Position numbers and translations under genes: made by a program
Notes under the pieces: model-generated
The model's input: only the letters and a program-made list of their open reading frames with translations
Told to the model about the DNA's origin: nothing
Databases searched by the model: none
In this document: one piece after another, positions 33,806-49,093 of the stretch
Layout of the letters: each line of letters begins with the position of its first letter
How positions within the stretch are numbered: position 1 is the first letter of the stretch
Source: a virus
Length of the DNA: 64,000 nt
Direction: 5' to 3' (one strand)
Virus record (IMG/VR): IMGVR_UViG_3300036715_001865
Span: 96,001 to 160,000 of that record

Positions 33806-33844
33806 AAAAATATCCATTAATTGATATTTTATTTATCACCCACA

Positions 33845-33870
33845 AACAAAAAACCACCCGAAGGTGGTTT
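33845..33870 (-). terminator. tmRNA terminator
   Basis: AAACCACC-TTCG-GGTGGTTT followed by a T-tract. Confidence 0.85.
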
Positions 33871-34140
33871 ATGTGAAGGTGTTTCTGTTTCCAAGTGTAC
33901 CTCCAATACTCATACCTACTTAGTTGCCTAAGCGGCTAGTGCATAATTTTCTGAATTTGCAGTTATATTTTTTATGCCATTAGATATTACTATCCAGAAG
34001 GTCATCTCTCTAGTTGCCGATCAAACTTATTCTACCCCAATCGATACCATGACATCCCCATAATTAGTTATTTGTGGAGATGGTGGGAGTCGAACCCACG
34101 TCTTGAAGCCTTTAATTTGATAGGAATTACAACCATTCAA
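33845..34140 (-). ncRNA. ssrA: circularly permuted (two-piece) tmRNA, tag ANSENYALAA
   Basis: T-arm GTGGG-TTCGACT-CCCAC and CATCTCC-A (34099-34075) precede GGGGATG (34059-34053); G3:U70 pair; tag ORF 33960-33928. Confidence 0.92.
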
Positions 34141-34146
34141 CTTTTG

Positions 34147-34154
34147 TATTTATA
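34147..34154 (-). promoter_or_regulatory. T4-late-like promoter of the tmRNA
   Basis: Exact TATAAATA just upstream of the acceptor piece. Confidence 0.7.
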
Positions 34155-34503
34155 CTATTCGAGTTTTATGTGCCTTAATATACTCATTTGTGAAATACTT
34201 TACTCTACCATCTACCATTTCACACAAGGTAGTAGGATGTATTCCCGAACCTACTGCAATAGTAAATTGAATATCAACCAATTGCTCATCGATATCATCA
34301 GTGGGCCGAACATAATCCATACCGGATACAAATATCCTATAAGCTTCAGTGGCTAAATTATATGCCAATTGATCTATAGCAATTTTTGTTTGGTTGGCAT
34401 CAATAGCTTGAATGGTACCATCTTTGATAATTTCTGTACACAATTCTTCCCAAGATTGTAACTCTTGATTGCTAATTTTAGTTGGTGTAGATGTATTGTT
34501 CAT
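34150..34503 (-). CDS. hypothetical protein
   Basis: ATGA-type coupling to the upstream gene; clean ORF. Confidence 0.65.
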   Translation of the reverse strand: MNNTSTPTKISNQELQSWEELCTEIIKDGTIQAIDANQTKIAIDQLAYNLATEAYRIFVSGMDYVRPTDDIDEQLVDIQFTIAVGSGIHPTTLCEMVDGRVKYFTNEYIKAHKTRIV

Positions 34504-35009
34504 TTATGTCCTTTTGTTGAGGCCCAATCCAAATCCAAGTCTTCTTGATACTCTTTTGCAATGTGAATTACAGGAAGTGTATCTAAAATACTTGGTAGTT
34601 TATCAATATCCATATCCCCAATATTATATGATAGGGTAATATGTGGGGTAAAATCAGGAAAGTCAAATGTAGCATCATGTTTTTTCATTAGATATTCATG
34701 TCGTTCTTTCAATTCTGGACAATCATATTTTATAACCAAACAATTGCTACTACTTCCATCTTCACTGGTTGACTTCCATACATCAAAAGTTGTTGGAGTT
34801 CCAGTAAACATTGGATCTATATTACCCAATGCTTCATATTCAGGTAAAAACTTTCTACTATATAACAACGTAGAATGCATATCTTTTGGCAATAATCCAT
34901 TGGGAATATCATTATCTTTAATGTACTTCAATACTGCTGTGGTTGTGGGTGTATCAAACTTTACACCTGCATACGTTCCTTTATTCGTTTGTAGTTCCGT
35001 TAATAACAT
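34500..35009 (-). CDS. acb1: Acb1-like (T4 57B) 2H phosphoesterase, anti-CBASS nuclease candidate
   Basis: MHSTLLYSR and ATFDFPDFTPHITLSY, C-terminal EDLDLDWA; same layout as T4 57B. Confidence 0.85.
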   Translation of the reverse strand: MLLTELQTNKGTYAGVKFDTPTTTAVLKYIKDNDIPNGLLPKDMHSTLLYSRKFLPEYEALGNIDPMFTGTPTTFDVWKSTSEDGSSSNCLVIKYDCPELKERHEYLMKKHDATFDFPDFTPHITLSYNIGDMDIDKLPSILDTLPVIHIAKEYQEDLDLDWASTKGHK

Positions 35010-36375: not shown

Positions 36376-38333
36376 AACATCTCCTTAATATCCGAAATAC
36401 CTACAATTGGTATATTCAATTCCCGAGCTTTATCCAACTTACTAGAAGCCCCATCTGGATTATTAGTAACTACTAAACTGGTTTTTGAACTAATAGAGCT
36501 ACCAATTTTTCCACCAGCCTGTTCAATTAATTTTTGCAAATTAGCATCACGAAATCCAGTAAACACTACAATTTTTCCACTAAAATTACCAGAAGCAGGT
36601 GGCATATATGGTGCAATCACTACTACTTTTTGTACTTCTCTTAAAAAATTTAAAAATTGTGGATATCCTGTTTGCACTTTTGTGGCTGTTTTGTGTTCAA
36701 ATCCTTTAACATCTAGGATTTTACTGTAACTTTCACACAGTGACATATCTCCATTGAATGCATCATACAGAGCTTTCATTTTCCGAACTCCAACTCCTCT
36801 ACCAAATGCGTTATGAGCACCCATCAATAGATATAATGGGATATTGGTTAATTTTTCACGGAGGCCATTGAAAATCTTTTTTGCATTTACTTTTGAGTTT
36901 AGTAAACTACTTAAATCTTCTTGGGTCAACATAATAACACTTTCAGGTGTTTCAAATCCCATATCAAATATTTTTTGTAGATTACCTTCGCCTAAGTGAG
37001 GTGCTTTAATGGCATCAAAAAAGTCAACTAATTGTCCATATAATGCCTCTTTACTGTTAGCATCGTCCAACACCAAATCAACACCAGTTTCTGTCCAATG
37101 AGTATATCCATATTGGAGAGTCTTCTCAGTAAACCATTCATCATAATCAGCTACTGTTGATGGATGCAAAACTTCCATAATAAATGGCACAACATCACCA
37201 CTTCTGGTTACTTTTACTTTAGACCCTGGACCAATTTTGTTTTCACAAATAAACTTCATATTGAAGCCTGTTGCCCACGTAACTGTTACTCCAACCAATT
37301 CAACTGGAGAAATTTCCACTCTTGGTTTTAGATAACCATGTTTACTAATGTTGATTTCGACGTCCACAACAGTAGCAATTACAACATTGGAGGCATCTGT
37401 AATTTTATATTTGATTGCGTATGCTGGATTCAAAGTAGAGCTGGTTGGATTCATTTCAGCACGTTTGGCAGCTGAATCAACTTCCAGTACAATACCATCT
37501 AACTCATATGCAGAATATTGTTTCCGGTTTTTAACTTCTGCAACTAACAGACCATCATTAATGTTATCCAATTTCCAACGGCGGTAGGATACAACATTAA
37601 AACCTAACTCTTCCAGTAACTGAAGCTGTGCTGTTTTTCCTAATTTGGAACCTACTATTTCGTAGACAACAAAATCAACATATTGATATACACCAACTGG
37701 ATTAACACTAGCATTCATTAAACCAGATACCATATTTCGGGCATTTTTATATGGTGTTCCATTTCTTGTTTTTAAAGTTTTGATAATTGGAAAGTTTCTA
37801 ATTGAAATAATGTTCTCACCACGGACAGCTAACGGCTGCCCATTGTGGTTGATTTTCTTAGGAACAGATGGCATTTGTGATAAATGTCTGGAAATGTCGG
37901 CACCTTGTGTACCATTTCCTCTACTATAACCTATTTGAAAATTACCATCTGCATCATATACAACAAGACCACTAGTGCCATCTAATTTATCAGATTCCAC
38001 AGCACTATATGACTCTAGGCTCCACTTTTTGACCCAAGCTTCAATTTCACCGTCATATACTTGGTCCAACGAGCCCATTTGGAATGGTAAAGTAACCTTT
38101 CCGCCACGGACATCACTACCAATGCCTAAGAAATAAGCATTGGTTGGATCAGTGTTTTTTGCATATTTAGATAGGGCATCATACTCACTATCTTCCATCA
38201 GAGGTTCTTCGTCATTGAAATATAACTCATCTGCTAATTCAAGTACGGATATGATTTGAGCGGTTGAATACCCACCAAATCCAATCTCAAAGAAAGCCGC
38301 CGCCAATAATTTACCTTCATCTGTAGTAATCAT
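36372..38333 (-). CDS. ligA: NAD-dependent DNA ligase with C-terminal BRCT
   Basis: KLDGTS, YSRGNG, VRGE, DGIVL, AIKY, VVFTGFRD. Confidence 0.95.
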   Translation of the reverse strand: MITTDEGKLLAAAFFEIGFGGYSTAQIISVLELADELYFNDEEPLMEDSEYDALSKYAKNTDPTNAYFLGIGSDVRGGKVTLPFQMGSLDQVYDGEIEAWVKKWSLESYSAVESDKLDGTSGLVVYDADGNFQIGYSRGNGTQGADISRHLSQMPSVPKKINHNGQPLAVRGENIISIRNFPIIKTLKTRNGTPYKNARNMVSGLMNASVNPVGVYQYVDFVVYEIVGSKLGKTAQLQLLEELGFNVVSYRRWKLDNINDGLLVAEVKNRKQYSAYELDGIVLEVDSAAKRAEMNPTSSTLNPAYAIKYKITDASNVVIATVVDVEINISKHGYLKPRVEISPVELVGVTVTWATGFNMKFICENKIGPGSKVKVTRSGDVVPFIMEVLHPSTVADYDEWFTEKTLQYGYTHWTETGVDLVLDDANSKEALYGQLVDFFDAIKAPHLGEGNLQKIFDMGFETPESVIMLTQEDLSSLLNSKVNAKKIFNGLREKLTNIPLYLLMGAHNAFGRGVGVRKMKALYDAFNGDMSLCESYSKILDVKGFEHKTATKVQTGYPQFLNFLREVQKVVVIAPYMPPASGNFSGKIVVFTGFRDANLQKLIEQAGGKIGSSISSKTSLVVTNNPDGASSKLDKARELNIPIVGISDIKEML

Positions 38334-47826: not shown

Positions 47827-48582
47827 CTACATTTGTATTCCTCTACTATTCAATTCTTGTTGTAAAACTAACAATTTATTATCTGTTTTTGCTAATTTCA
47901 TTCGTATTTCATGAGCGACTTTTTTATCCAAATCTCCCAATACTTGGTTGATTATCATATCAGCTTGTGATAATTGTTGTCCCATAGATGGAGCTTTTTG
48001 TTTTGCTTTAGATTCAGGGGCCTTTTTACCCCAGTCTCTATCAAACGCTTCTTGCAATTTTAGCCACATATTTTCAAATGCATTTACTGCATTTTCTAGT
48101 CTACTAGCAGCAACTTTTAATCTGTTTTGTTGATCTAATGGGGCATCACTGGCCATAGATTTTAGTAACATAGGTAACTCACCAGCAAATATATCTACAT
48201 ACTTACTATATGATATTCCTTTTTCTTGTCTTACAGCAACGTCCATATTAATTTCAACACCACCCAATTCTTTTAATTGTGAAGCATTTTTTTTGTATCT
48301 ACTATCTTTTGATAGGGTGATTAAAGCATTTTTCATACCTGTTGTTGGATTTATTCTTCGTGAAGATGTGCTTAAGAAATTTTCTGCAAACCATCTACCT
48401 TTTTGTTGACCTGCAACTTTTTTTGTGGTTCTCCACATATCTTCGTGGTTTCCCTCAGCATACATATTTTTGATAATACCAGGTAGGGTATCAGAGTGTA
48501 ACATGGTTAATAAATTTACGTTGTATAATAATTGATCTACAGCATTTATGCTCATATCTTCAAATAGGTCTTGTAATAACAT
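47827..48582 (-). CDS. hypothetical protein, probably late/virion
   Basis: Starts MLLQDLFED; late promoter upstream. Confidence 0.65.
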   Translation of the reverse strand: MLLQDLFEDMSINAVDQLLYNVNLLTMLHSDTLPGIIKNMYAEGNHEDMWRTTKKVAGQQKGRWFAENFLSTSSRRINPTTGMKNALITLSKDSRYKKNASQLKELGGVEINMDVAVRQEKGISYSKYVDIFAGELPMLLKSMASDAPLDQQNRLKVAASRLENAVNAFENMWLKLQEAFDRDWGKKAPESKAKQKAPSMGQQLSQADMIINQVLGDLDKKVAHEIRMKLAKTDNKLLVLQQELNSRGIQM

Positions 48583-48612: not shown

Positions 48613-48624
48613 TATTTATAAATA
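48613..48624. promoter_or_regulatory. palindromic bidirectional late promoter
   Basis: TATTTATAAATA gives TATAAATA on both strands between divergent genes. Confidence 0.65.
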
Positions 48625-48649: not shown

Positions 48650-49093
48650 ATGCACATTACATTTAAACAATTTTTAATCGAAACCTTAGATAACCCTGTT
48701 CCATATAGTTGGATTGGAAAATATGACGACCAGTGGACAGCTAAATTCCAAATTGATGAGCTCATCTATCACGTAATTTTTAGTCAGGATGACGAAAATC
48801 TTAGTAAATGGGAATGTGTTTTTACAATTGTAAACCAAACTAATGATCAAGGTATGTTTGCTCTTACTGGAACAGGAAATGCAATGACAGTTTTCAGCAC
48901 TATTACAAAAATTGCAGTTGATTTCATTAAAAACAACTCTACTGTTAATATGTTTGTATTCACAGCTGATGGTGACTCACGAAAACGTTTTTATGATAGA
49001 TGGGCTAAACAATTAGCCCATCTATTTGGAGGGTGGGATATCCGTATTATTGACAGGGGAGTTCGTAAGTATATTTTACGAAGACCTATGTAG
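48650..49093 (+). CDS. hypothetical protein, probably late/virion
   Basis: Starts MHITFKQFLIE. Confidence 0.65.
   Translation: MHITFKQFLIETLDNPVPYSWIGKYDDQWTAKFQIDELIYHVIFSQDDENLSKWECVFTIVNQTNDQGMFALTGTGNAMTVFSTITKIAVDFIKNNSTVNMFVFTADGDSRKRFYDRWAKQLAHLFGGWDIRIIDRGVRKYILRRPM

Follow-up and report, generated by a model that had tools for sequence, protein, structure and literature searches.

A circularly permuted two-piece tmRNA gene with a late-type promoter element in an uncultured jumbo phage related to XacN1 and RsoM2USA

The window analysed here is a 64,000-nucleotide stretch of DNA that corresponds to bases 96001-160000 of a 190,391-bp IMG/VR record (IMGVR_UViG_3300036715_001865), estimated by CheckV to be ~54% complete; unless stated otherwise, positions are those of the window. 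The contig has a GC content of 36%, carries 17 tRNA genes and represents a phage whose DNA was found in microbial mat and sediment metagenomes. An intact gene for a circularly permuted two-piece tmRNA is located on the minus strand, in a region that encodes topoisomerase II, primase, DHFR, an NAD-dependent ligase and ThyA. From 5' to 3' the gene consists of a TATAAATA box, the acceptor piece, a spacer, the coding piece and a terminator (Table 1). The portal protein of the phage is 50% identical to that of the Xanthomonas phage XacN1, 49% to that of Xoo-sp13, 42% to that of the Ralstonia phage RsoM2USA and 49% to those of the Stenotrophomonas phages CM1 and RAS14, and these cultured relatives are all jumbo myophages with genomes of 309-385 kb. 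By sequence comparison the carrier is a T4-like jumbo myophage, with XacN1 and RsoM2USA as its closest cultured relatives.

Table 1. Elements of the permuted tmRNA gene (33841-34154), in the order in which they follow each other 5' to 3' on the minus strand
Feature	Position	Strand	Basis or remark
TATAAATA box, T4-type late promoter -10 element	34147-34154	-	Positional enrichment, gp55 homologue
Acceptor piece	34075-34134	-	ARAGORN, Rfam, fold; pairs covary in relatives
P2 5' strands	34103-34134	-	Acceptor piece
T-arm GTGGG/TTCGACT/CCCAC	34083-34099	-	Acceptor piece
Acceptor 3' strand CATCTCC	34076-34082	-	
Discriminator A	34075	-	
Intervening spacer, 15 nt	34060-34074	-	Removed on maturation (predicted)
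Coding piece	33871-34059	-	ARAGORN, Rfam, fold
Acceptor 5' strand GGGGATG	34053-34059	-	G3 at 34057
D-loop analogue GGTATCGA	within 33871-34059	-	Coding piece
P2 3' strands	34012-34040	-	
Small hairpin and possible PK1	~33975-34011	-	PK1 by manual inspection
Tag frame GCA..GCT and TAG, ANSENYALAA and stop	33928-33960	-	ARAGORN, Rfam
Resume codon GCA, preceded by ATAACT	33958-33960	-	
Stop codon TAG	33928-33930	-	
Two 3' hairpins	33875-33927	-	Coding piece
Intrinsic terminator, 8-bp stem, UUCG loop, then T run	33841-33870	-	Terminator scan
Terminator hairpin itself	33851-33870	-	Terminator scan

The locus had been read in a first-pass annotation as a circularly permuted two-piece tmRNA gene in a phage, and ARAGORN as well as two Rfam covariance models accepted the permuted fold. 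ARAGORN called a permuted tmRNA (tmRNA*) at 33837-34164(-) with the tag ANSENYALAA followed by a stop. The model tmRNA_permuted (RF04321) matched with 115.6 bits at model positions 1-213 (cut-off 47), and beta_tmRNA (RF01850) matched with 95.2 bits (cut-off 84), the top score within the clan; the two matches span the full models, with E-values of 7.5e-22 and 1.4e-27. Every part that had been listed for the gene, namely the acceptor piece, the spacer, the coding piece and the UUCG terminator, was found on the minus strand. The proposed P2 pairing was recovered by the free-energy fold and by the covariance-model alignment, the G3:U70 pair is intact (G3 pairs with the U at 34078), and CCA is indeed not encoded, the discriminator A being followed by CAA. 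Contigs from two additional public runs, which derive from other samples, contain the identical tmRNA sequence without any difference, and the tmRNA is therefore not an assembly artefact. Another run, presumably of RNA, covers only 34301-34614 and gives no coverage at the tmRNA.

The tRNA-like domain of a tmRNA is present, with a 7-bp acceptor stem containing G3:U70, a T-arm and the discriminator A, and its halves are arranged in reversed order: on one strand, the 3' acceptor half comes first and the spacer links it to the 5' acceptor half that follows. In the free-energy fold the spacer closes the acceptor stem, and the T-arm and P2 helices are formed as well; the minimum-free-energy z-score of -1.5 is unremarkable. 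The tag frame has an alanine resume codon, a hydrophobic end of the ALAA type and a stop. A hairpin at ~33990-34011 offers a candidate PK1 loop pairing, AGAUG/UAUCU, seen by eye. When P2 strands were combined with those of other genes in a cross-partner duplex test, the own partner of this copy performed better than 21 of 22 foreign partners, but the results for the lineage as a whole were noisy.

One ORF upstream of the tmRNA, a 169-aa gene at 34500-35009(-) encodes an Acb1 anti-CBASS phosphodiesterase (PF23474, E 4.4e-33), which PHROGs labels 'RNA ligase'. An Acb1 homologue is found directly upstream of the tmRNA in ~20 related contigs. ORF117, which is located beside the tmRNA, was considered as a hidden SmpB and rejected; it has no Pfam or Atlas match, and its single-sequence model is all-helical and poor (pLDDT 41). 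Downstream of the tmRNA, ORF317 groups solely with viral clusters of unknown function, and a search for related loci via this ORF found none.

Scanning IMG/VR with the primase yielded 47 related loci. In 26 of 32 loci (primases 41-65% identical to that of this phage), ARAGORN or Rfam detected a permuted tmRNA 5' of the primase gene and on its strand, and five of the six loci without a tmRNA contain less than 1.3 kb of upstream DNA. The order DHFR, Acb1, tmRNA, variable ORFs, primase is kept across contigs with GC contents from 31% to 50%. Judged from this gene order, the permuted tmRNA is a syntenic, lineage-wide trait of XacN1/RsoM2USA-like phages. In an alignment of nine lineage members, compensatory changes were observed in nine of the 13 pairs of the T-arm and acceptor stem and none of the pairs is broken, while G1:C72, G2:C71 and G3:U70 are invariant in all nine. 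In all relatives the tag frame is open; it starts with AN, in most cases AND, and its last two residues are mostly AA. Covariation and the conserved tag frame argue for a working, alanine-charged tmRNA in this lineage. The spacer is the shortest in the phage lineage, those of the relatives ranging from ~20 to ~190 nt, and most relatives also have a GC-rich hairpin 3' of the gene, usually with a loop of the UUCG type, which is likewise part of RF01850.

Neither in IMG/VR nor in the JGI metagenomes was the exact tag ANSENYALAA found in another record, and a search with the 5' domain in the same two collections found nothing. No near-identical tmRNA was present in IMG/VR, the JGI metagenomes or GenBank phages. 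A scan with a 23-mer covering T-arm and acceptor sequence detected ~30 more viral contigs with permuted tmRNAs, the tags of which include ANDSVYALAA and ANDESYALAA; none of these tmRNAs is close to the one described here beyond the tRNA-like domain. The bacterial genome contigs matched in the 23-mer scan contain mostly one-piece tmRNAs from many phyla and are uninformative.

The cultured relatives were searched as well. XacN1 (AP018399) contains two tmRNA copies, one per terminal repeat, at positions 37231-37530 and 356026-356325 of its genome (123 bits on RF04321). RsoM2USA (MG752970) has one copy at ~331.7-331.9 kb (96.7 bits) and Xoo-sp13 (MN047793) one copy at 39.0 kb (65.7 bits), and no permuted tmRNA was found in RAS14 and PA5oct. 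The tmRNA is annotated in none of the GenBank records of XacN1, Xoo-sp13 and RsoM2USA and is not mentioned in the phage papers on XacN1 and RsoM2USA. These three phages are thus cultured carriers of an unannotated tmRNA that can be used for experiments. The tag that ARAGORN reports for RsoM2USA is wrong; the Rfam alignment gives ANDSRYAVAA. A full-length GOLLD RNA (RF02032, 227 bits, cut-off 150) is encoded at ~38.6 kb in XacN1, ~1 kb 3' of the tmRNA and within a gap that has no annotation.

The tmRNA had been proposed to be late-promoter driven, and this proposal is supported by a T4-type box directly before the gene. Thirty of the 41 TATAAATA boxes in the contig (73%) sit 5-45 nt 5' of an ORF start on the same strand; other permutations of its eight bases are so placed in 10% of cases and positions overall in 2.3%, and TATAAATA ranks first among the permutations of its bases for this placement. 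The raw number of boxes in the window matches chance expectation (10 observed, 11.5 expected), and therefore only the box positions are informative. Other TATAAATA boxes precede the genes for the baseplate hub, tail fiber, tail tube, head-tail adaptor and portal, and a gene for a protein homologous to gp55, the late sigma factor of T4, is also present in the contig (E 1e-11). No acceptable -35 element was found before the tmRNA box, the best candidate having three of six matches. The transcript is predicted to start ~6 nt past the box, near 34141 and ~7 nt before P2. Elsewhere in the window, two overlapping TATAAATA boxes on opposite strands (48613-48624) are located between the divergent genes 47827-48582(-) and 48650-49093(+), which looks like a bidirectional late promoter.

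Upstream sequence is available for 24 tmRNA genes of the lineage including this one; the exact box is present in 13 of them and a variant with one mismatch in three. In most of the 12 relatives that have the exact box it ends 4-8 nt before P2. On this comparison the TATAAATA box is a conserved promoter element of the tmRNA genes of the lineage. A -35 element of the TTGAC type is joined to the box at a distance of 17-18 nt in 13 of the 16 box-bearing genes (this copy counted among the 16), which is the arrangement of a sigma-70 promoter. Most relatives look able to use the host sigma-70 too, whereas this copy looks late-type only. The combination of box and TTGAC-type -35 element in the relatives could form a composite promoter that serves both the host sigma-70 and the late sigma factor.

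Expression of this copy may also start further upstream. The stop codon of ORF 34150-34503 falls inside the TATAAATA box of the tmRNA and the terminator scan detected no terminator between this ORF and the tmRNA, so that read-through from Acb1/ORF117 is possible and the tmRNA may be made outside the late phase too. A stronger version of this argument holds that the tmRNA is not specifically late at all and is transcribed mainly by such read-through or, as in the relatives with their sigma-70 arrangement, by the host sigma-70. We regard this as a real though minority possibility, since this copy lacks an acceptable -35 element and boxes of the same form stand before virion genes. The reading of the tmRNA box as a late-type promoter is retained for this phage.

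The resemblance of the tag to that of E. coli had been taken to suggest an independent permutation or an unusual host. This conclusion was not supported, since such tags are normal here: the form AND..[YF]A.AA prevails among the phages of this lineage and is also that of the Rfam consensus of betaproteobacterial two-piece tmRNAs, and the gene is syntenic. The tag therefore says little about the origin of the gene. The top score of RF01850 is likewise weak evidence of origin, because the syntenic relatives split between the models: the best clade model is beta for 14 genes (this one and 13 relatives) and alpha (RF01849) for five, and neither passes for six. In the 3' domain one hairpin is present in place of PK2-PK4, and its loop motif CUUGGAAACAGAA aligns with the alpha consensus ACCuGGCAACAGAA and the beta consensus CCUUGuuACcaAA of the two-piece families. 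As a beta-specific marker this loop motif was rejected, the alpha consensus having it also. We take these comparisons to mean that the gene shares an ancestor with the known permuted genes and that the phage copies have since diverged over a long period.

A permutation that arose independently in the phage lineage from a one-piece gene would be the fourth origin of two-piece tmRNAs. The unstable assignment of the syntenic relatives to the beta, alpha or neither model would fit such an event, as would the rarity of the form among bacterial genomes sampled from the class of one gammaproteobacterial genome, where one of 151 had a permuted tmRNA above the cut-off; this single genome stands alone in its family and order. 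We nevertheless consider an independent permutation unlikely, since PK2-PK4 are missing and the single 3' hairpin aligns with both the alpha and the beta two-piece consensus.

Recent capture of ssrA from an unusual host whose own tmRNA is two-piece and carries a tag like that of E. coli would agree with the betaproteobacterial model being the best clade-specific Rfam match and with the frequent resemblance of phage tmRNAs to those of their hosts (PMC9004378). Such a capture is very unlikely given the synteny across contigs whose primases and GC contents differ as widely as described above, the lack of a near-identical tmRNA in the three collections searched, and the hosts of the tmRNA-bearing cultured relatives, which are Xanthomonas and Ralstonia. 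Finally, the gene could be degenerating, or its RNA could inhibit host trans-translation as a decoy instead of taking part in it. The non-encoded CCA and the frame-less tmRNA-like RNA of mycobacteriophage DS6A (cited in PMC11915505 as an inhibitor of host tmRNA) could be put forward for this reading, which is highly improbable with all functional modules intact, stems that covary and a conserved tag frame with a degron-like end.

Taken together, we are confident that this is a functional two-piece tmRNA gene that has been inherited within the XacN1/RsoM2USA-like jumbo myophages and constitutes a separate transcription unit, bounded by a TATAAATA late-type promoter and an intrinsic terminator. 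With more doubt than belief we add the suggestion that these phages could harbour an old, vertically inherited two-piece clade of their own, which is not cleanly alpha, beta or cyanobacterial, is kept beside acb1 and uses host SmpB even in Xanthomonas and Ralstonia. The tmRNA of Xanthomonas and Ralstonia themselves is one-piece. If this suggestion were true, the gene would be a phage-owned arm of ribosome rescue and not a recently borrowed host gene.

No SmpB was found in this contig (~54% complete) or in four complete relatives, and SmpB is therefore probably supplied by the host, although the part of the genome that the contig lacks could encode partners of the tmRNA. A CCA-adding enzyme was not found in the 190 kb of this ~54%-complete genome. 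All three tmRNA-bearing cultured relatives encode a PF01743 nucleotidyltransferase of 357-376 aa that is absent from the tmRNA-less RAS14, a very small sample; the PF01743 family includes CCA-adding enzymes and poly(A) polymerases.

The sequences show the anatomy of the gene, its conservation, the covariation and the promoter context; for the steps after transcription we infer processing, charging, SmpB dependence and benefit from established tmRNA biology. Transcription from the late-type box, perhaps together with read-through, would stop at the terminator and yield a precursor of ~290 nt, which would fold with the 15-nt spacer closing the acceptor stem. Host RNase P would cleave 5' of G34059, and trimming of the 3' trailer would make A34075 the last base of the acceptor piece, to which a CCA-adding enzyme would attach CCA; helix P2 would keep the two RNA pieces joined. 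The host AlaRS would charge the tmRNA via G3:U70, and host SmpB and EF-Tu would carry it to ribosomes that have come to a halt on broken mRNAs. Translation would resume at GCA and append (A)ANSENYALAA, a degron of the ClpXP type. The phage would probably benefit by keeping ribosomes free late in infection, while host and phage mRNAs are cut. In the first-pass annotation, late expression had been proposed as a possible means of rescuing ribosomes that stall when host defences cleave RNA.

Two-piece tmRNAs of phages have been catalogued before: 53 distinct two-piece forms were reported among 18,146 phage genomes, with XacN1 entered as 'Permuted' in Table S1 (PMC9004378), and a tmRNA database lists 79 phage sequences (PMC11915505). 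Since two-piece phage tmRNAs including that of XacN1 were already contained in the former study, the novelty of the gene had been overrated, and knowledge of the permuted form itself is unchanged by this case. The gene adds a clean example of a phage tmRNA with a late-type promoter, and it adds evidence that the tmRNA is a stable syntenic trait in one jumbo-phage lineage. New here are the synteny within the lineage, the conserved adjacency to Acb1, the comparison of the promoter with those of the relatives and the annotation gap in three cultured phages.

Betaproteobacterial two-piece tmRNA was reportedly described by Sharkady and Williams in 2004. The gene shares with beta_tmRNA (RF01850) a match over the full model, one 3' hairpin and a terminator, and the tag consensus of this family, ANDE.FA.AA, resembles ANSENYALAA. 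It differs from beta_tmRNA in being phage-borne and in its spacer, which is 15 nt long compared to ~26 nt in the consensus. The RF01850 model has a built-in -35/-10 promoter, whereas a late-type box is present in this phage, and the syntenic relatives of the gene at times score higher on the alpha model.

The tmRNA of XacN1 is alike in that it belongs to the same group of jumbo phages, has the permuted architecture, is matched best by the beta clade model and encodes a tag of the same style, ANANTFDYALAA. In contrast to the gene described here, it is located in the tRNA region of the terminal repeat and not beside Acb1 and primase, its spacer is longer than 15 nt, and no TATAAATA box is present within 60 nt 5' of the tmRNA.

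A permuted ssrA without a phage SmpB, as found here, is also known from the OM43 phage Melnitz, pelagimyophages, cyanophages and Caulobacter phages (PMC9004378); their tmRNAs are of the alpha or cyanobacterial type (PMC9004378), unlike the one described here. Rfam detected no riboswitch at this tmRNA. The tmRNA of Melnitz is expressed from an early promoter and associated with a glutamine riboswitch (PMC9004378), whereas this phage has a late-type box.
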